Assembly: GCA_040754455.1 (NCBI GenBank)
Contig: JBFMCP010000002.1
Location: 64,001 to 128,000 of the forward strand
Length of the DNA: 64,000 nt
Source of the DNA: Nitrospirota bacterium
GTDB taxonomy: Bacteria; Nitrospirota; Thermodesulfovibrionia; Thermodesulfovibrionales; Dissulfurispiraceae
Direction: 5' to 3'
Shown: in pieces, positions 13,510 to 58,394 of the stretch
Layout of the letters: every line of letters starts with the position of its first letter
How positions within the stretch are numbered: position 1 is the first letter of the stretch
The notes under the pieces: model-generated
Databases searched by the model: none
Told to the model about the DNA's origin: nothing
The model's input: the letters and a program-made list of their open reading frames with translations, nothing else
Translations under genes and position numbers: made by a program

Positions 13510-14523
13510 ATGTTTGAGAACTATCTAACAGGCTTCGCCGAGCAGGAGCGTGTTCTTCACGGGCTTGATGAAGCCTCAGTGTCGGCCTATCTTAAAAAAT
13601 TAAAAGAGTTCTTAGAATGGCTCGAAGGCAACGGGCATCCGGAGGAAATAGACATCCTCAAACAACGTGAGCTCATTGAGCAATATCTGCAGTGGTGCTT
13701 CCGTAGGGGGAATAAGAATACCACGCGAAACACCAAGCTCACGGCCATCACCAAATTTTATCGTTATCTCGTCTATATCAAGGCCCTTGATACTGATATC
13801 ACCGCCGACATCCCGCGACCGAAGACTCCACGTCGGTTTATGCAGGCGTACACCCGGGAGGACGTGCTCCGCCTTTTCCGGGCGATTCCGCTCCTTGACC
13901 CTAAGAAGGCAGAGAAAGCCCTCCGTGATGTCGTGATCATCATCCTGGGCGCTTTCTGCGGCTTCCGTATCGATGAGGCGCTTACCACCACGTTGAGCTC
14001 GATTGAGGACGATGGGAAATATATAAATATCCACGTTGAGGCAAAGTTCGGCAAGCATCGCTCCGTATATCTCTGGGCAGCGCCTTCTAACTTTGTGCGT
14101 TCTTATGTTGCGGTCCGCCTCGGGCATGGCGCGAAGAAAGATTCTCCGTTGCTGGTGTCATATAACAAGGGCGGAAAGCCCAAGGGTAATGCTCTCACGC
14201 ACGGAGCCATTGACCAGCTGATCAAGGGCCTGGCTGCGAATGCAGCCCTCCGGAAGCCGGAGAATCATTACCACATGTTCAGGGCAGGTCATATCAATGA
14301 CCTGCAGCGGATTAAAGGTTATACGCTCCCGGCGATCGCCAAGCGCGTCGGGCACGAGAATATAGAGACAACGTTTATTTACATCAAAGACCGGGACCGG
14401 ATTCACCATGAATACCCGAGCCTGGCCGCTTTCTGGAAAGATTTTGGTCCCCAATTGTGGGAGAAAGGAGATACTGATGCTAACGGCAGTAGTCATGTTG
14501 GAGGAGGAGAGATTGTCGAATAA
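13510..14523 (+). CDS. XerC/D-like tyrosine recombinase
   Basis: N-terminal SAM-like domain; GFRIDE (R), HMFR (HxxR), VGHENIETTFIY (H, Y). Confidence 0.9.
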   Translation: MFENYLTGFAEQERVLHGLDEASVSAYLKKLKEFLEWLEGNGHPEEIDILKQRELIEQYLQWCFRRGNKNTTRNTKLTAITKFYRYLVYIKALDTDITADIPRPKTPRRFMQAYTREDVLRLFRAIPLLDPKKAEKALRDVVIIILGAFCGFRIDEALTTTLSSIEDDGKYINIHVEAKFGKHRSVYLWAAPSNFVRSYVAVRLGHGAKKDSPLLVSYNKGGKPKGNALTHGAIDQLIKGLAANAALRKPENHYHMFRAGHINDLQRIKGYTLPAIAKRVGHENIETTFIYIKDRDRIHHEYPSLAAFWKDFGPQLWEKGDTDANGSSHVGGGEIVE

Positions 14524-15007
14524 CAAAAGAACGGCCAACTGGGAACGTCTCATACCGCTTTTTCAGTCCTATGTCGATACGTTCGGGGCCGAGCTGGGGG
14601 GAATGGTCATTGATTACATCGCCCGAATGATCGGCGGGTACCGGATCTCTTTCCCGGAAAAGCTGACGCCGATCACCAGGCATTCGGAGAGCTGGGTTAT
14701 CCTCGCCCAGTTTTATGATGTCCTATGCTCGGACCTCAGCAAGATCGAGATGCCGAAGGCACCTGAAGAATTCCGTAACGGCTCCAGGCTGTCGGGGAAC
14801 CGGATAGGCCAGGTCGTTATGAAGGAGATGTTTCGTAGACTCAAGGGCCATCGGATTTCATTTGTCAGGCTTGAAGAGATGCATCGCATCGAGCGTGACG
14901 AGAAGATCCGCAAAGAGCGGAAGGAGCATGGCACCAGCGTCACCGTCCTCGCCGAGCGCAGCGGCCTGGATGAAGTGACGATATGGAGAATATTGAGGGA
15001 GGAATAA
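14477..15007 (+). CDS. Mor/C-family transcription activator
   Basis: C-terminal ERDEKIRKE...LAERSGLDEVTIWRIL; IGGYRISFP; start may be 14513. Confidence 0.75.
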   Translation: MLTAVVMLEEERLSNNKRTANWERLIPLFQSYVDTFGAELGGMVIDYIARMIGGYRISFPEKLTPITRHSESWVILAQFYDVLCSDLSKIEMPKAPEEFRNGSRLSGNRIGQVVMKEMFRRLKGHRISFVRLEEMHRIERDEKIRKERKEHGTSVTVLAERSGLDEVTIWRILREE

Positions 15008-15010
15008 ATA

Positions 15011-15238
15011 GTGAAGGATTTATCTCATTTGAAATCTATTTTCAAATTTCTGCCAGGCGATAAGGTCGAGACGATTGTGGGGGATCTGGGCTTTGTTGAA
15101 ACCTGCGCTATAGAGGCTGAAGGTCGTGTGAAATATTACGTTGTTTGGAAGGGCGGCAACGGTAGATGGTTTTATGAGGATACCTTAACTGCGGGATGGA
15201 ACACGTCGAAGTCCGTGAGCGGTTTTAAAACAAAATAG
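15011..15238 (+). CDS. Hypothetical phage protein
   Basis: GGAGG RBS; FKFLPGDKV...WFYE. Confidence 0.55.
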   Translation: MKDLSHLKSIFKFLPGDKVETIVGDLGFVETCAIEAEGRVKYYVVWKGGNGRWFYEDTLTAGWNTSKSVSGFKTK

Positions 15239-15592
15239 GAGACCGAATATGAAGAACGCGAACTGCATCTTCAATGATCGGGGTGCCTGGTGCAAGAACG
15301 AGAAGGTAAAGCGGCGCTTGTTTGGCCTGGGGGCGAGAGTTTGTGCTGTGTTTAATGGGATGTCAGCACCAGCAAGAATATCCTCGACCAAAATCCCTTC
15401 CCCCAGTCCCGTCGCCGAGGGTGGAGCACCTGGGGATATAAGAGCGTAGAATGTTGGAGTGTTGGGGTATAATAATTCCATGAATTACGGCCTGGTCTAT
15501 AAGTCTAAGAGGAAGCGAAACAGTGGAGTTCTTTGGGCTCTGGCGTTGGCTGTGATAGTTATAGGGATTATTTCTCTCTGGGGTCTATGGAG

Positions 15593-15808
15593 ATGATGGT
15601 TAAATTGTTGCCATGCCCTTTTTGTGGCAACGAAGCGAAGCTGTACGAAGACTCGGAATATGCTAGCGAAGACCTCAGAAAATATTCTGTCTCCTGTACA
15701 GGATGCTCCTGCTCCTTGGGGGCCCTCGGCGATGACCATGACGACAATCCTGAATATTTGTTCTCTTCTAAGGAAGAGGCAATTAAGGCTTGGAATACTC
15801 GTGTATAA
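15593..15808 (+). CDS. Lar-family restriction alleviation protein
   Basis: LLPCPFCG...CTGC...EEAIKAWNTR. Confidence 0.8.
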   Translation: MMVKLLPCPFCGNEAKLYEDSEYASEDLRKYSVSCTGCSCSLGALGDDHDDNPEYLFSSKEEAIKAWNTRV

Positions 15809-15817
15809 ATTTAACCG

Positions 15818-15850
15818 CTGGCAAATCATGAAATAGAGAATTTGTATAAT
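15818..15850 (+). promoter_or_regulatory. Putative late promoter, copy 1
   Basis: CTGGCAAATCATGAAATA + 9 nt + TATAAT. Confidence 0.65.
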
Positions 15851-15915
15851 TTGTGAAGAGGTATTTGCGGAATGTCTTGACGGCGACCGCCAAAATCATC
15901 GACAAGGCTTCCGTC

Positions 15916-16052
15916 TTCGGTCAGTAGCAATTCACTCTTTTCCGGTGGGAACTGCTTAACCCGAAACCTGAAAGCTTGTTAGGATAGTGGTCAACTCTCT
16001 TTGGAGAGACCCTGGCCAACCCCGACTGGGCACTGGTTTCGGGTATTTTTTT
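15916..16052 (+). ncRNA. Structured cis-regulatory RNA leader, copy 1
   Basis: 10-bp stem ACCCGAAACC (15959-68) / GGTTTCGGGT (16035-44) then T run; inner stems; shares sequence blocks with 48191-48340. Confidence 0.6.
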
Positions 16053-16069
16053 GCCCGGAAAGGAGAACA

Positions 16070-16270
16070 ATGCACACAGACTGGGATATCAAGGACTGGA
16101 AGCGCCGTCTCGCCAAGCTGCTCAAAGAACACCCTGACATTGACGACCAGACCACCGGGCGTATCGAAATCAATCTTAACAGGGGCTCTATAACCAAGGC
16201 TTATAAGGTCGAAACCGAATCCCGTAACGGAGGGGCGAAAAGGATTATCACCATGACGGAATTGAAGTAA
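16070..16270 (+). CDS. Small leader-associated protein, copy 1 (66 aa; possibly DUF2292/YezD-like)
   Basis: AAGGAG RBS; DIKDWKRRLAKLL...PD...TGRIEINLNRGSIT; paralog at 48360. Confidence 0.7.
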   Translation: MHTDWDIKDWKRRLAKLLKEHPDIDDQTTGRIEINLNRGSITKAYKVETESRNGGAKRIITMTELK

Positions 16271-16314
16271 TCGCGGTCAGTTAGTAACTGCCGTCCTGGT
16301 GCGGCAGATCTATT

Positions 16315-16350
16315 AAACCCGGCAATGCGCTATGCGTTGGCCGGGTTTTT
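16315..16350 (+). terminator. Hairpin/terminator directly before the modification gene RBS
   Basis: AAACCCGGC...GCCGGGTTTTT. Confidence 0.6.
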
Positions 16351-16362
16351 CATTTGGAGATC

Positions 16363-17661
16363 ATGTCATTCATCGGATCGATTAACGACAGGCTTCGACA
16401 GTTTTTCTGGACCCACGCCGGCAGGCTCGACGGCCGGCGCTGCTATATCGGCTGCTCGGGCAATTTCACCATTGAGCAGATCATATCGCGCCGCTGCAGC
16501 AACGTAGAGATCTACAGCAATGACGTGTCTCTTTATTCAAGCGCCCTCGGCCATATGCTGGCCGGCAAGTCCTTTGACATGGAAATAACGAACCCCGAGC
16601 TCTCCTGGGCGAATGAATACATCCGGAGGGGCGCTGCAGAGGGAGTCGGCACGCTCCTGCTCTTGCTCGAAATGCTGAAGTACGAGAAGCGCAAGAGCGC
16701 CTTTGCCGAGCGCATGTGGCAGTCGTATCTGATCAATTTCGAGGGGCTGCTCGACAAGACCCTGCAGCGGATCCAGAAGGCGTCTGAGCATATTCGTATC
16801 AAAGAATACACCATGGTCGACGTGTTCGATTACTACCCACGCCCTGACGGCGTGAGCATCGGCTTCCTGCCGACCTATGTGGGCGGGTACGAGAAGCTTT
16901 TCGCCCGCCTCGAGGAGTCGGTGCAGTGGCAGAGCCCACGCTACGAGCTGCTTACCACAGAGCGCCGTGAGGCCAGCGTCCAGAAAATGCTTGACGGTGA
17001 TTACATCCTCTATGATGACCGTGAGCGCGATCTCCCCTGCATCGCCCGCGTGGATCTCTTTGGCCGCAAGACGGTCTACATTTACAGCAACCTCGATGTC
17101 CGCCAGGGCGTGTTCCGGAAAAAGATAAACGAGAAGGTCCCGCGCTACGAAATCCTCATGCCGGATGAAGAGATCGCTCATGATGCCGAGGTCAAGCTCC
17201 TGCAGGTGGACCTTCCGACGATCAACCACTACCGCAATATGTTCCTGAGCAAGAAGATACAGCCCGGCTCCGGGGATCCCTGCTTCCTTGCTTTTGCCGG
17301 CGACAAGGTGTTCGGCTTCCTGATCTTTCAGACCTATTCGAAAAAGGGCGGTCCGTCCGATGAGATCTATCTGCTATCAGATTTCGTAGTGCCGAGTACT
17401 CGGTATCGCCGACTTGCGAAACTGCTGCTTCTGGCCGTCAAGTGCAGAGAGGTCAAGCAGCTCCTCGATGAAAAGCAGATACGGGAATTCGGGAGCATCC
17501 TGACTACCGCTTTTACCGATAAACCGGTGAGCATGAAATACCGCGGCGTCTTCGAGCTCGCAAAGCGCGGCGAGGGCTTTCTGAATTACCGGGCCGAATT
17601 CGACAACACATCCCTGAAGGAGGTCATACAGCTATGGATGAAAAAATACGAGAAACAGTAG
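16363..17661 (+). CDS. Putative DNA-modification (anti-restriction) enzyme: divergent adenine MTase-like N-terminus + GNAT-like C-terminus
   Basis: YIGCSGNFT and YSNDVS SAM-binding-like motifs, FLPTY in the DPPY-like position; C-terminal GFLIF...YLLSDF...RRLAKLLL; GGAG RBS. Confidence 0.6.
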   Translation: MSFIGSINDRLRQFFWTHAGRLDGRRCYIGCSGNFTIEQIISRRCSNVEIYSNDVSLYSSALGHMLAGKSFDMEITNPELSWANEYIRRGAAEGVGTLLLLLEMLKYEKRKSAFAERMWQSYLINFEGLLDKTLQRIQKASEHIRIKEYTMVDVFDYYPRPDGVSIGFLPTYVGGYEKLFARLEESVQWQSPRYELLTTERREASVQKMLDGDYILYDDRERDLPCIARVDLFGRKTVYIYSNLDVRQGVFRKKINEKVPRYEILMPDEEIAHDAEVKLLQVDLPTINHYRNMFLSKKIQPGSGDPCFLAFAGDKVFGFLIFQTYSKKGGPSDEIYLLSDFVVPSTRYRRLAKLLLLAVKCREVKQLLDEKQIREFGSILTTAFTDKPVSMKYRGVFELAKRGEGFLNYRAEFDNTSLKEVIQLWMKKYEKQ

Positions 17662-46410: not shown

Positions 46411-47496
46411 ATGGGACAGAGCATTATATGGAAAGATGATCCGGCATATTCGACGAATGCCGCTAACTTTCACAAGAGCATGGACATCAGGCCGGGCCTG
46501 TTCAACAATTACCTGCAGGTTAATGCTACAAAGACCGGCATCATCGTCAAGGCCGATACCATCATCCCCCTGAAAAGCGGGTCCACGTGGAAGGCGTACC
46601 TGTTCACCTCTGACAGCGAGGTGACGACGCTCGACACCGGCGCGCTTACCCTGGGGACGCATTACTACGTCTATCTCTGCGATAACGGTACGGACAACGG
46701 GCTGCTGCTCCTCTCTGCGAACTCCACCGCGCCGCAGGGCTACACCGCATCGGACTCCAGGAAGATCGGCGGCTTCCACTACGGCAGAGTGCGCAATAGC
46801 ATCACCGTGGCCGACGTCACCAGCGGCGCCGTGGTCCCCAACTCGGTGTGGGACCTCTACAACCGTCCCAAGTGCTCTCCGGAGGGCATGGTGAAGATCC
46901 ACGAGAACCTCTGGTGCGATATCTACCTCGCCTCGGTCAACGAGGCGATCACCTTTGCTGCGGGCAATGGCTCCCCCACTAAGGCAGGCTCCTGCAAGAG
47001 CGCCTACAATGCAGCGCCTCTGACGGGCACAGAGGGCCTCAGCGGCTACAACTTCCTCGAGCTGGCCAGAAGGTCCGGCAAGAGACTTTTGACCCTTGCA
47101 GAATGGCTGCAGGCAGCGCACGGGAGTCCACAAGGAAATAACGGGGATAATAACAACGCCTGGTCAGCTACCACCAATTCAGCAAGGACAAATACGGGCT
47201 CTGTGGCCAATGCAATCAGCCTTTTAAATGTGGTAGACTGTGTGGGAAATGTCTTGGAATGGCTTGATGAATTTTCGAATCGACAGGATACCACGAGCTG
47301 GAACTGGTACGACGTTATGACAGGCATGAGTGTGGGTCAGCTTTATCTGGCGAACAACACGGGATTGATACAGTATTTAGCCGGTGGCCATTGGAGCCCT
47401 GGCGTCTACGCTGGCTCGCGGTGCGTTAATGCCAATAGCTCTCCGTGGAGTGTCTCTCCGGATATCGGCTCCCGGCTGGCCTGTGACGCTCTGTAA
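46411..47496 (+). CDS. DGR target: Mtd-like receptor-binding protein with C-terminal CLec (FGE-type) fold
   Basis: IGGFHYG, SVWDL, WCDIYL, GKRLLTLAEW, DCVGNVLEW, GSRLACD; VR at the 3' end. Confidence 0.92.
   Translation: MGQSIIWKDDPAYSTNAANFHKSMDIRPGLFNNYLQVNATKTGIIVKADTIIPLKSGSTWKAYLFTSDSEVTTLDTGALTLGTHYYVYLCDNGTDNGLLLLSANSTAPQGYTASDSRKIGGFHYGRVRNSITVADVTSGAVVPNSVWDLYNRPKCSPEGMVKIHENLWCDIYLASVNEAITFAAGNGSPTKAGSCKSAYNAAPLTGTEGLSGYNFLELARRSGKRLLTLAEWLQAAHGSPQGNNGDNNNAWSATTNSARTNTGSVANAISLLNVVDCVGNVLEWLDEFSNRQDTTSWNWYDVMTGMSVGQLYLANNTGLIQYLAGGHWSPGVYAGSRCVNANSSPWSVSPDIGSRLACDAL
47380..47486 (+). repeat. DGR variable repeat (VR)
   Basis: 107 nt aligned ungapped with TR; 13 differences, all at TR adenines. 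Confidence 0.97.
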
Positions 47497-47537
47497 TCTG
47501 AAATCTGATAATCTGTTTTGTTTTTTGTCGTTGTATC

Positions 47538-47557
47538 AGGCGGGCGAAAGCCCGCCT
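47538..47557 (+). promoter_or_regulatory. DGR target-recognition hairpin
   Basis: AGGCGGGC-GAAA-GCCCGCCT: perfect 8-bp GC-rich stem with GAAA loop downstream of VR. Confidence 0.85.
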
Positions 47558-47590
47558 CTGTCGAAAAAATTTTTTAGGGGTTAGGTACAG

Positions 47591-47923
47591 ATGAACGATC
47601 TCGTGATTTACCAGAAGGTGTACGATTTCACGCTGTACCTTTTCCCGATTGTAGAGAAGTTTCCGAAGCATGAGAAGTTTGTCCTCTGTACGCACGTCAA
47701 ATCATGCGTGCTCGATATTGCCCGGCTGATCATCAGGGCCAATAAGAGCCGGACGAAAAAGGCGATCCTCTACGACATCGATGTGAGGATCGAGGAGCTG
47801 AAGTTTCTGCTCCGGCTTGCTCATGACAGGAAATACCTCTCCAACAAAAGCTACGAGCACAGCAGCAAACTGCTGCTCGAAATAGGAAGGCTGTTAGGAG
47901 GATGGATCAAAAGTGTGGGTTAA
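47591..47923 (+). CDS. avd: DGR accessory variability determinant (four-helix bundle)
   Basis: LVIYQKVYD..FPKHEKF..LRLAHD..EIGRLLGGWIK; between VR and TR. Confidence 0.93.
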   Translation: MNDLVIYQKVYDFTLYLFPIVEKFPKHEKFVLCTHVKSCVLDIARLIIRANKSRTKKAILYDIDVRIEELKFLLRLAHDRKYLSNKSYEHSSKLLLEIGRLLGGWIKSVG

Positions 47924-47930
47924 GGGCGAT

Positions 47931-48037
47931 ACCGGTGGCAATTGGAGCAATGGCGTAAACGCTGGCTCGCGGTGCGTTAATGCCAATAACTATCCGTGGA
48001 ATGTCAATACGAATATCGGCTCCCGGCTGGCCTGTGA
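47931..48037 (+). repeat. DGR template repeat (TR)
   Basis: Adenine-retaining copy of VR with nine AAY codons in the VR frame. Confidence 0.97.
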
Positions 48038-48190
48038 GTGTATAGGGCTTACAGAGATGATGTCTCTCTACGGAGCATCACCAGTGACATATACAGTCAG
48101 GCCCTTGATCCCTGCCGCAAGGCAAAAATTGGAGAGGCTCTGTGCAGTGAGTACGGACAGCAGTCCTTAAAATTGTGCAGGCCGCATAAT

Positions 48191-48340
48191 TTCGGTCGGT
48201 TAATAGCTCCGCTTCAGCCGGAGAACTGTTAAACCCGAAATCTCAGAATCGTAAAAACGGTCGGTTAGTTGGCAACTCCTCCGGGAGAGCTGCCAAGCCC
48301 ATCAAAAACCGTTTTACGGTTTTCAGATTTCGGGTTTTTT
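48191..48340 (+). ncRNA. Structured cis-regulatory RNA leader, copy 2 (inside DGR spacer)
   Basis: 13-bp stem AAACCCGAAATCT (48231-43) / AGATTTCGGGTTT (48325-37) + T run; inner stems; shares blocks with 15916-16052. Confidence 0.65.
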
Positions 48341-48359
48341 GGTTTCAGGAGGCTGACCG

Positions 48360-48545
48360 ATGGGCGGGAAGAAAGACGACAAGGAATGGAAGCGAGTATT
48401 GGTGAAGTGCCTGGAGGATCTGGGCAAGGAGGGGATTGTCCCTCCGGATGTGAAGAATCTGACCGGCAGGCTTGTCCTCGATCTTAATATGAGCCAGGGC
48501 GGGGTAACGGATCTGGATGTCTCGGTGAAGAGGAAATTTAAATAA
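48360..48545 (+). CDS. Small leader-associated protein, copy 2 (61 aa)
   Basis: AGGAGG RBS; DDKEWKRVLVKCL..PPD..TGRLVLDLN..GGVT; stop 1 nt before RT start. Confidence 0.75.
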   Translation: MGGKKDDKEWKRVLVKCLEDLGKEGIVPPDVKNLTGRLVLDLNMSQGGVTDLDVSVKRKFK

Positions 48546-48546
48546 G

Positions 48547-49581
48547 ATGCCTAAGACCTATAACGGCCTGTTTGAGAAGATCTGCGATTTCGAGAACATC
48601 TATGGCGCATACCTCAAGGCGAGAAAATGCAGGCGGTACCGGGAGGAAATACTCAGGTTCAGCCGCAATGTGGAAGAGGAACTGTTGACGCTCCAGGATG
48701 AGCTGGTGCTGGGCACCTACAGGACCGGCCAGTACAAGCGGTTCTTTGTGTTCGAGCCAAAGAAACGAGAGATATTCGCGCTTCCCTTCAGGGACAGAGT
48801 GGTGCACCATGCAATCTGTACGATTATCGAGCCGCTCTTTGAGCGGAAGTTTATCTTCGACTCCTACGGGTGCAGGACCGGCAAAGGGCAGCATGCCGGG
48901 TCGTCCCGGCTGGTCTCCTTCCTGAGACGGGCGCAGAGAGTATGGGATGAGGTCTATTGCCTGAAGGCCGACGTGTCGAAATTCTTCCCCTCGGTGGACC
49001 ATGAGGCATTGAAGGGCATCATACGGCGGACCATACGCTGCAAAAGGACCCTGCAGCTTATCGATTGCATCATCGACAGCGCGCCTGAAGAGAAGGGGAT
49101 ACCGATCGGGAATCTTACCAGCCAGCTCTTTGCGAATATCTACCTGAATGAGCTTGATTACTTCGTAAAGAACGAGCTGCAGGCGAAGTTCTATCTGCGC
49201 TATATGGATGATTTTGTGATCCTCCATAACGATAAGAAAGTGCTGCATCAGTGGATGGCGCAGGTCGGCGAATTCCTGAGAGAAAGGCTTAAGCTTGAGC
49301 TCCATGCAAAGACCTCTGTCTTCCCCATCTCCAGGGGCGTCGACTTCCTCGGCTATCGCACCTGGCCGACGCACAAGCTCCTCAGGAAGCGCAATATCAT
49401 CGGCATGAAACGGAAGCTCAAAAAGCTTTCTGCATTATACAGGGACGGCAGGATTACCCTTCAGGTCGTGAGGCCGGTCATAGCCTCATGGCTCGGCCAC
49501 GCGAAGCACGCGAGCAGCTATAACGTCGTGAGGAGGATGCTCGGGAACGCTGTGTTTAGTAGGAGTTCATTATCGGGATGA
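48547..49581 (+). CDS. DGR reverse transcriptase
   Basis: PFRDRVVHHA, GIPIGNLTSQLFANIYL, YLRYMDDF, VDFLGY; 344 aa, no maturase/endonuclease tail. Confidence 0.96.
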   Translation: MPKTYNGLFEKICDFENIYGAYLKARKCRRYREEILRFSRNVEEELLTLQDELVLGTYRTGQYKRFFVFEPKKREIFALPFRDRVVHHAICTIIEPLFERKFIFDSYGCRTGKGQHAGSSRLVSFLRRAQRVWDEVYCLKADVSKFFPSVDHEALKGIIRRTIRCKRTLQLIDCIIDSAPEEKGIPIGNLTSQLFANIYLNELDYFVKNELQAKFYLRYMDDFVILHNDKKVLHQWMAQVGEFLRERLKLELHAKTSVFPISRGVDFLGYRTWPTHKLLRKRNIIGMKRKLKKLSALYRDGRITLQVVRPVIASWLGHAKHASSYNVVRRMLGNAVFSRSSLSG

Positions 49582-49635: not shown

Positions 49636-50142
49636 ATGAAAAAGCCGCCGATAATAAGAAAAGGGACAATCAATAACTCCGCCTGTCGGAGAGCTATTAG
49701 AGACCCTATGAGAAGAAAGAGAAAAATACTTATCGTTGATGATGAAGAGTTTGTACGTGCCGCTGTTCGCAGAATCCTTGAATTTAATAATTATTCGATT
49801 ATCGAGGCGCTCTCCGGGCCTGAGGCTTTAAAAAAATTGTCTGAAAAACCCGACTTGATCATTGCTGATTACCATTTAGGCGGCATGTCTGGGTTATGCC
49901 TCTTGATTGAGATCCGAAAGGCCAGTGATATCCCTATTATCATGTTGACCGCGGACTCCTCACAGAAAATAGCGGTGCAGTGGTTTCGTGAGGGAGGAAA
50001 TGATTTTATCCATAAACCTTTTGACAGCGATTTTCTTTTAGTCGTCGTTGAGCGCACACTGCGTTATGCTGCTGCCATGAGGGCAATGATGTCACAGCCC
50101 ACGAAAACCCGTAAGCCTCGCTCGAAGAGATCCTCGAAATAG
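49636..50142 (+). CDS. Stand-alone response regulator receiver protein (start may be 49708)
   Basis: ILIVDDE, DLIIADY, IPIIMLTA, FIHKPF. Confidence 0.85.
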   Translation: MKKPPIIRKGTINNSACRRAIRDPMRRKRKILIVDDEEFVRAAVRRILEFNNYSIIEALSGPEALKKLSEKPDLIIADYHLGGMSGLCLLIEIRKASDIPIIMLTADSSQKIAVQWFREGGNDFIHKPFDSDFLLVVVERTLRYAAAMRAMMSQPTKTRKPRSKRSSK

Positions 50143-50937: not shown

Positions 50938-51013
50938 TGGTGGTCCCAACGGGAGTCGAACCCGTGTTTTAGCCTTGAGAGGGCCACGTCCTAGGCCACT
51001 AGACGATGGGACC
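50938..51013 (-). tRNA. tRNA-Glu (CTC), probable prophage attachment site
   Basis: GGTCCCA...TGGCC-CT-CTC-AA-GGCTA...GGTTCGACTCC...TGGGACCACCA. Confidence 0.95.
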
Positions 51014-51108: not shown

Positions 51109-51182
51109 TGGCTGGGGAGAGAGGATTCGAACCCCTATAAGCAGATCCAGAGTCTGCCGTCCTGCCATTGGACGACTCCCCA
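51109..51182 (-). tRNA. tRNA-Gln (CTG)
   Basis: TGGGGAG...GCAGA-CT-CTG-GA-TCTGC...GGTTCGAATCC...CTCCCCAGCCA. Confidence 0.95.
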
Positions 51183-58318: not shown

Positions 58319-58394
58319 TGGTGGACGGTAGGGGATTCGAACCCCCGGCCCCCACGTTGCGAACGTGATGCTCTCCCAGCTGAGCTAACCGCCC
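58319..58394 (-). tRNA. tRNA-Ala (CGC)
   Basis: GGGCGGTTAGCTCAG..TCACG-TT-CGC-AA-CGTGG..ACCGTCCACCA; G3:U70 pair. Confidence 0.93.

Follow-up and report, generated by a model that had tools for sequence, protein, structure and literature searches.

In the C4-icd-ant (immI) system of phages P1 and P7, loops a' and b' of the C4 RNA are complementary to the ribosome-binding site (RBS) region of a downstream small ORF and covary between relatives, and the C4 precursor is processed (RNase P) to a ~77-nt RNA that acts on the same operon. In RAT antitermination, the antiterminator hairpin overlaps the 5' arm of a terminator, and the protein involved is a CAT RNA-binding protein with PRDs. Mu com-mom combines a zinc-finger translational activator, Com, with a translation-inhibiting stem.

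In this report, we analysed a stretch of 64,000 nucleotides from a Nitrospirota bacterium (the window, to which all positions refer, on the plus strand unless stated otherwise), in which two leader RNAs each precede a small ORF (sORF): copy 1, upstream of a gene with DAM-like and GNAT-like domains, and copy 2, inside a DGR. The likeness to P1/P7 C4-icd-ant (immI; background in parts of PMC8198154) is that a structured RNA lies upstream in the same transcription unit and is complementary to the RBS of the small ORF, which in copy 2 stands directly before a larger gene. However, the complementarity is not conserved here, the RNA is separated from the RBS by an intrinsic terminator, the repeated hairpin is also found downstream of the ORF, and there is no antirepressor. 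As a claim of family membership, the C4 analogy drawn in a preliminary description of this DNA is not supported: there is no covariance-model match, Rfam C4 giving nothing at gathering score over the whole window and nothing at E<=10 over 15800-16360, 48080-48560 and 47900-48360, and we do not place the leader RNA in that family.

Other likenesses lie closer to what we propose below. As in the BglG/SacY/LicT-RAT and ANTAR systems, a hairpin with conserved internal loops, less stable than the terminator, has bases in common with the terminator's 5' arm, an overlap that is found in 12/13 leaders, and the hairpins are in tandem as in the two-hairpin substrates of ANTAR. However, the sequence and shape of the hairpin differ and the system is phage-borne, while CAT, PRD and ANTAR domains are absent from the sORFs (Pfam, E<=10) and no such gene is found among the annotated neighbours. 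As in Mu, where the phage also carries a Mor-type activator, a gene of ~60 aa stands just before one for adenine-directed DNA modification, with an RNA structure between the two, but the sORF lacks the zinc-finger cysteines of Com (sORF1 has no cysteine, sORF2 has one) and has no zf-Com match, and control would lie in the terminator overlap. The position between template repeat (TR) and reverse transcriptase (RT) is that of the DGR spacer RNAs (RT-10, RT-14), but the DGR here has a spacer of its own, 146 nt long, with the cassette on its 3' side, and cassettes are found outside DGRs as well. For BPP-1, the Rfam RT-10 motif is placed between TR and RT (PMC5737381), and the spacer of the Bordetella phage DGR carries stem-loops that bind Avd and RT (10.1101/2023.10.23.563531). 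The parts of the 2017 DGR survey on which we drew (PMC5758913) give Avd, HRDC, MSL and CH1 as accessory genes, consider terminators only after target genes and mention no ORF of ~60 aa; in a literature search worded on DGRs and intrinsic terminators, the corresponding parts of PMC5758913 and PMC5737381 describe no such cassette. Among working systems, the closest analogues are RAT/CAT, ANTAR and Mu com-mom, whose defining proteins are absent here, and both the RNA motif and the protein family are undescribed, being found in neither Rfam nor Pfam.

The repeated hairpin motif and the small ORF family

Alignment of the leaders reveals that each holds two copies (A and B) of one ~48-nt hairpin motif, 5' (U)UCGG-YYAG-[6-bp stem]-A-CUCC-loop-GGAG-AN-[stem']-AN-CCCGAA, with a third copy (C) after the ORF in copy 1 and in the loci L037 and L038. 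Three comparisons show that these hairpins are real RNA-level structures. First, the 15-pair structure is paired in 88.6% of cells across 23 aligned copies, with changes on both sides in 11 of the 15 pairs and 0/500 shuffles as good, while slid controls reach at most 50%. Second, G-U pairs are seen only in the gene-strand sense, which favours RNA over DNA. Third, the whole-leader core, which consists of hairpin A, a long helix ending in a U-run and hairpin B, has 38 pairs that are 90.8% paired, 15 of them with double changes, and here too 0/500 shuffles were as good. The base helix of the hairpin (CGG/CCG plus U-A pairs) is invariant, and covariation therefore neither backs nor refutes it. The internal loops CGGUUAG and CCCGAA are strongly conserved while synonymous sites are saturated.

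Neither leader matches any Rfam family, whether at gathering score or at E<=10. R1, a covariance model built from the hairpin, finds five copies in the window and a partial sixth at 49660-49710, and it recovers three hairpins in each of three cassettes outside its training set (36-44 bits in G370, 22-33 in G144 and 21.5-24 in G000:C1) as well as weak matches directly behind distant sORF homologues in L032 and L043. A search of contigs with the hairpin pattern matched the L026 contig only, and three related phage records (59-73% complete) contain only the two DGR hairpins. A separate motif, GAACTGNTNAACCCGAAA, gave 22 loci in viral contigs, all of which proved on inspection to be chance matches in unrelated sequence.

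The small ORFs behind the two leaders, sORF1 (66 aa, 16070-16270) and sORF2 (61 aa, 48360-48545), are paralogues with 37% identity over 46 aa (BLASTP, E 9e-6). Against relatives, dN/dS is 0.04-0.10 with synonymous sites saturated, which marks the sORF as a real gene under purifying selection. Family members have 57-66 aa, a helix followed by a beta-hairpin, and an invariant TG...LN.(N/S)QGGIT signature; in the AF2 model (pLDDT 78.8), the helix spans residues 9-23 and the strands 36-45 and 48-58. The family is rare. A word-indexed search returned two proteins, one of them the window's own sORF1, there are two true relatives among 1.84 billion representatives, and the only close relative of sORF1 is P0002 (82%). 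Profile-guided scans added eight viral and 11 metagenome loci. The non-redundant set with a close sORF2 relative and a homologous leader consists of eight loci (L026, L027, L028, L034, L035, L036, L037 and L038), L039-42 being duplicates of L028, one with a single base change.

No family was found for the sORF in Pfam (even at E<=10), PHROG, PADLOC or NCBIfam, and PADLOC gave no relevant match for 19 family members. The sORF model has no solved look-alike (best Foldseek E 0.37, to GnsA with TM 0.39; best VIA-align Z 2.2), a PDB profile search gave only low-complexity PPR matches, and an Atlas search gave only unnamed viral clusters with scores of 0.81-0.83. A resemblance to YezD/DUF2292, which we had presumed, was dropped, as there is no such Pfam match at E<=10. 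Two large proteins, P0005 (2432 aa) and P0006 (1825 aa), have three and seven stretches, respectively, that are like the TG...LN..QGG beta-hairpin signature (E ~2e-4) and that may be a repeat built from an sORF-like beta-hairpin unit.

Genomic settings of the two cassettes

Copy 1 lies between a Lar-like zinc-ribbon gene and, on its other side, a DAM-like + GNAT-like gene and a ParB-like gene. An extended -10-like TGTATAAT at 15843-15850, read by eye, is a possible promoter of the cassette, and a two-hexamer scan finds no promoter there; in the related cassettes of G144 and G000:C1, TGATGTATAAT stands just before hairpin A. In copy 1, hairpin A (15915-15967; R1 36.3 bits, E 1e-6; also in the fold) has an enlarged apical loop with a stretch, 15935-15945, complementary to the Shine-Dalgarno (SD) region, and hairpin B (15981-16028; R1 30.4 bits, E 3e-5; also in folds) is enclosed by the helix of the leader terminator (15960-16052), in which CCCGAAACC (15960-15968) pairs with GGTTTCGGG (16035-16043) ahead of a T-run at 16046-16052. 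The 5' arm of this terminator is the 3' base strand of hairpin A, the base of which costs 3.7 kcal/mol to enforce when compared with the terminator fold. Behind sORF1, a segment at 16271-16350 comprises hairpin C (16271-16325; R1 42.7 bits; fold) and an overlapping terminator (CCCGGC...GCCGGG, 16318-16345, then a T-run), and is followed at 16354-17661 by the gene with DAM-like-phage1 and GNAT-phage-like domains (Pfam, E 2.8e-56 and 3.5e-41). The region upstream of copy 1 (13510-15808) carries a tyrosine integrase, a Mor-family activator (14408-15007) and a Lar-like/Ogr-Delta-like zinc-ribbon protein (15533-15808).

Searches of related genomes yielded three further cassettes of the copy 1 type. 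In G144, from the same genus, the cassette stands at the end of an unrelated ORF block, in a place equivalent to that of the window's partial hairpin copy, upstream of a response regulator and a RadC-like gene; by tblastx, the sORF is the only match between the 19 kb upstream of this cassette and the window, and the seven ORFs upstream of it have no Pfam family. On another contig of the window's genome (G000:C1:115190-116400, or L064 1330-2540), hairpins A, B and C and an sORF with a 49-aa core precede a gene for a D12 N6-adenine DNA methyltransferase that is interrupted by an in-frame TAG at codon 28. In G370, from another family of the same class, the cassette precedes a homologue of the DAM-like/GNAT gene. 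In this locus (L062 1456-1359, minus strand), the terminator overlapping hairpin C carries the SD of the DAM-like/GNAT gene (GAGGAGG) in its loop; with the SD in the loop and the ATG directly after the U-run, formation of the terminator would also occlude the RBS of that gene. Among the distant sORF homologues (27-36% identity), the next genes in L030 and L031 are ParB_N-DNA methylase genes (by Pfam for L031, by sequence homology for L030); with these, a DNA methylase-type gene follows a cassette in the window, G370, G000:C1, L030 and L031. The cassette is not tied to the DAM-like/GNAT gene, because L025, which has a 69% homologue of that gene, has no cassette upstream of it, and cassettes are found at varied places in prophages.

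Copy 2 belongs to a DGR (46411-49581) that, judged by its sequence, is complete and active-looking and of the Mtd-Avd-TR-RT type. It consists of a target gene (46411-47496; Mtd-like with a C-type-lectin fold, by Pfam and the repeat; VR at 47381-47486), a bAvd accessory gene (47591-47923; Pfam bAvd, E 6e-34), the TR (47932-48037, from the repeat search) and the RT (48547-49581; Pfam RVT_1). TR and VR form a 106-nt repeat of 89% identity in which 12/12 differences fall at TR adenines; an RVT_1 RT, a bAvd gene and a TR/VR pair differing only at TR adenines are thus all present. The 146 nt at 48038-48183, aligned and conserved in all copy-2-like loci, are probably the DGR spacer RNA (Sp): Rfam RT-14 matches them weakly (22.8 bits against a gathering score of 48.1, E 0.64) but over its full length (1-144), and this match exactly fills the gap between TR and hairpin A. 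Then come hairpin A (48190-48241; R1 54.8 bits), with TCGGTCGGTT (48192-48201) as its 5' flank and TCAGCC (48214-48219) as its loop, and hairpin B (48259-48305; R1 55.8 bits), which is enclosed by the leader terminator (48234-48340) formed by CCCGAAATCT (48234-48243) and AGATTTCGGG (48325-48334) and ending in a T-run at 48335-48340. Enforcing the base of hairpin A here costs 9.5 kcal/mol. The RT ATG lies 1 nt behind the sORF2 stop, and the order Mtd-Avd-TR-Sp-leader-sORF-RT is common to 8/8 relatives of copy 2. The partial hairpin copy (49660-49710; R1 18.9 bits, E 0.024) has the upper two stems only, without the CGGUUAG base, and stands after the RT, 10 nt before a response-regulator gene. 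A search for att-type repeats between 11-14 kb and 49.3-51.5 kb gave only 11-13-nt chance words. To the right of the phage region there are three tRNA genes (50941-51013, 51112-51182, 58322-58394 (minus strand)).

Pairing between leader and ribosome-binding site

The preliminary description had proposed that in both leaders the loop of the first hairpin is complementary to the RBS region of the small ORF, and the pairings themselves are where it had placed them. In copy 1, CTCTTTTCCGG (15935-15945) and CCGGAAAGGAG (16055-16065) form 11 contiguous pairs, one of them G-U. The start of sORF1 is the ATG at 16070, not 16071, so this helix covers the SD AAGGAG; the SD region of sORF1 is at 16055-16065. 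In copy 2, TCAGCC (48214-48219) matches GGCTGA (48351-48356), and TCGGTCGGTT (48192-48201) matches GGCTGACCGA (48351-48360) over 10 bp including three G-U, ending on the A of the ATG at 48360; the SD AGGAGG and the spacer GCTGACCGA up to the sORF2 start occupy 48347-48360. The hairpin loop of copy 2 is thus used only in the weak 6-bp match, the stronger helix using the 5' flank of the hairpin. Exactly these pairings are contained in the RNAfold minimum-energy structures of both leaders with their RBS (copy 1, -63.3 kcal/mol, z -3.3; copy 2, -74.2 kcal/mol, z -6.3; 0/200 shuffles equally stable in either case). The two leaders are homologous structured RNAs, and RBS sequestration is predicted for both by folding.

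How unusual these helices are differs between the copies. In dinucleotide shuffles, the 11-bp helix of copy 1 was matched in 15/2000 shuffles of the RBS and 20/2000 of the hairpin, and is therefore uncommon (p ~0.01), while the 10-bp helix of copy 2 was matched in 121/2000 and 81/2000, respectively, which makes the copy 2 helices marginal (p 0.04-0.06). Moreover, the upper stem of the hairpin motif is CUCC/GGAG, so that some anti-SD complementarity is built into the motif.

One reading, which develops the preliminary description, is that the leader, or a small RNA cut from it, acts mainly as an anti-SD in the style of P1/P7 C4-icd-ant, the loop (copy 1) or the 5' flank (copy 2) blocking translation of the sORF and of the coupled downstream gene. 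The pairings exist and are used in the minimum-energy folds, with the shuffling values just given, and in copy 2 the 1-nt distance from sORF2 stop to RT ATG would suit coupling. We nevertheless regard this reading as rather doubtful, on the strength of a comparison of 13 leaders. The loop-to-RBS helix, searched with the loop plus 3 nt against the RBS and scored in 11 leaders, is longest in copy 1 (11 bp, one G-U) and L037 (10 bp, three G-U), reaches 8 bp in L036, 7 bp in L034 and 6 bp in copy 2, L027 and L026, and falls to 3-5 bp in L028, L035, L038 and G144. Tetraloops are found in L026, L035, L036 and L037; the best helices of L036 and L037 draw on stem bases and three G-U pairs, and loop/SD pairing is absent in L026 and L035, with their tetraloops, and in the copy-1-type cassettes of G144 and G370. 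Looked for across homologs, covariation of hairpin-1 loop and SD is therefore not what the preliminary description would have it: the pairing is not conserved, several relatives having tetraloops.

The helix between the 5' flank and the pre-start region fares somewhat differently. It has 10 bp in copy 2, L028 and L035 and 7 bp in L026, it is 77.6% paired on the alignment, and it shows one compensatory change, C-G to U-A, between the copy2/L026 and L028/L035 clades, which favours anti-SD action, as does the SD-to-ATG spacer CTRACCGA, kept in four loci despite saturated synonymous sites. Against this, the helix is present only in degraded form in L027 and L034, both close relatives, L036, L038, G144 and G370 lack it, and its covariation is not significant, 92-115/500 column shuffles of the 10-sequence alignment being as good.

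Comparison with control sites points the same way. The hairpin-A/RBS duplex beats 95% of shuffled RBS controls in 5/13 leaders, which supports anti-SD pairing, but in another 5/13 complementarity is no greater than in shuffles (0.19-0.97; for instance, G370 0.97, L038 0.59, L034 0.50 and G144 0.42). This control flatters the anti-SD claim, since shuffling destroys the SD with which any CUCC stem would pair, and the conserved CUCC strand amounts to generic anti-SD complementarity. When real non-cognate RBSs served as controls, the cognate mean was -17.1 kcal/mol vs -14.2 kcal/mol, and the cognate RBS was the best partner in only 3/10 leaders. The position of the terminator also counts against anti-SD action: because it precedes the SD, a terminated RNA has no pairing target, and in copy 1 there is no coupling because a terminator separates the sORF from the next gene. 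Nor does the leader match the C4 model at E<=10. In sum, C4-like loop/RBS complementarity is present in the window but lost in at least 5/13 leaders, with covariation no better than in shuffles, and copy-specific anti-SD pairing would be at most a lineage-specific addition rather than a conserved logic. What stands of the earlier reading is the homology of the leaders and the predicted RBS sequestration in both; the complementarity of loop and RBS is not kept in relatives.

Terminator overlap as a possible control point

The leader's intrinsic terminator precedes the SD, and the primary control point thus looks transcriptional. The 5' arm of this terminator is the CCCG... base strand of a motif hairpin in 12/13 leaders, the hairpin being A in 11 of them and B in L038, and in L036 the helix is kept with no U-run. 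The 3' base strand of the hairpin doubles as the terminator's 5' arm, so that an RNA with the hairpin closed down to its base cannot also form the terminator. In 9/10 leaders tested, a fold with the hairpin base held closed is 3.7-11 kcal/mol less stable than the terminator fold, a difference that binding of a protein could make up; in L038 the difference is 0, because the terminator there uses hairpin B. Behind the sORF, hairpin C overlaps a terminator in 4/4 copy-1-type cassettes, and 5/7 distant homologues have a hairpin there with an intrinsic terminator after it. Control by termination is not universal, however, since L036 has no U-run and no terminator accompanies hairpin C in L037 and L038.

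Our main reading of this comparative evidence, to which we give a probability of roughly one half, is that the cassette works as a transcription attenuator that depends on a factor, with closed hairpin and terminator as competing structures. Left to itself, the leader would form the terminator, the more stable of the two, and most transcripts would end before the sORF. A factor acting in trans and clamping the hairpin would block the terminator and so let transcription proceed into the sORF and the gene behind it, i.e., the RT of the DGR in copy 2 and, in copy 1, the DNA adenine-methylase-like/GNAT enzyme. For the DGR, the terminator would at the same time set the 3' end of the TR-Sp template RNA and limit RT expression to a low level. 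The most economical candidate for the factor would be the sORF protein itself, an obvious choice because it always travels with the motif. Three points tell against this scheme. First, since hairpin B is enclosed by the terminator helix, a factor bound to B would make the terminator more stable instead of opposing it. Second, with the sORF protein as factor there would be positive autoregulation, which is unusual and counts against the simplest version of the attenuator. Third, the sORF has no recognisable RNA-binding fold or family and a net charge of only ~+1. The three related phage records with no hairpins but the two of the DGR also count on this side. The fuller proposal, i.e., that small phage proteins of a new family bind a dedicated hairpin motif and that competition between hairpin and terminator gates adenine-acting enzymes, these being Dam/Mom-like DNA modification and, in one clade, the DGR RT, is possible but on the doubtful side.

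RBS sequestration could join attenuation as a plausible second layer confined to certain lineages, an addition that we put forward only tentatively. In the DGR clade, the 5' strand UCGGUYRG would pair with CCGAAAU in the ON state, closing hairpin A, and the same strand would pair with CURACCGA just before the start codon in the OFF state; it is this one strand with two partners that makes sequestration fit as a second, lineage-specific layer. In copy 1, the anti-SD would be supplied instead by the enlarged loop of hairpin A.

Two other readings are less probable. That hairpins A and B and the sORF are accessories of the DGR ribonucleoprotein, extending the spacer RNA, for example, with extra stem-loops that bind RT/Avd or the sORF, rather than an expression switch, would agree with their position directly 3' of the spacer in 8/8 DGR loci and with the Avd- and RT-binding stem-loops in the Bordetella phage spacer (10.1101/2023.10.23.563531, in the part consulted). 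It is improbable, however, given that copy 1, G144, G000:C1 and G370 have the cassette with no RT nearby and that an RT-14-like RNA, weak but of full length, already takes up the 146 nt from TR to hairpin A. We consider it slightly less probable still that the cassette is a module like the type III toxin-antitoxin ToxIN, in which hairpin repeats neutralise the small protein and the terminator sets the ratio of RNA to protein. The layout of promoter, repeated RNA units, terminator and small gene is the same as in ToxIN, and the cassettes occupy varied places in prophages, as morons do. However, ToxIN has near-identical tandem repeats of ~34-36 nt, whereas the units here are ~45-52 nt, diverged (58% mean column identity) and separated by spacers; the protein has only 57-66 aa and no PADLOC match to a ToxN/AbiQ/CptN-type endoribonuclease toxin or to anything else of relevance; and the fixed position in eight DGRs and upstream of methylases argues for regulation of the neighbouring gene. 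Least probable of all is that RBS complementarity is a product of chance or of the CUCC stem and that the hairpins serve transcript stability or termination alone, without switching, for which the 5/13 leaders no more complementary than shuffles (0.19-0.97) and the marginal helices of copy 2 could be cited, but which leaves aside that the terminator overlap recurs in 12/13 leaders and that the internal loops (CGGUUAG, CCCGAA) are conserved where synonymous sites are saturated, implying a specific ligand.

Control of the expression of DGR components is little described, and here a module of conserved RNA and small ORF lies exactly between the template/spacer RNA and the RT in nine DGRs (that of the window and eight relatives), which offers a testable way into the question of what sets the ratio between template RNA and enzyme. 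If the fuller proposal is true, the module would be, for DGRs, the first regulator devoted to ending the template RNA and metering the reverse transcriptase, and RBS pairing would be a translational back-up of the hairpin/terminator control. That the same module is also found before phage DNA adenine-modification genes suggests that it may be a portable, Com-like regulatory device.
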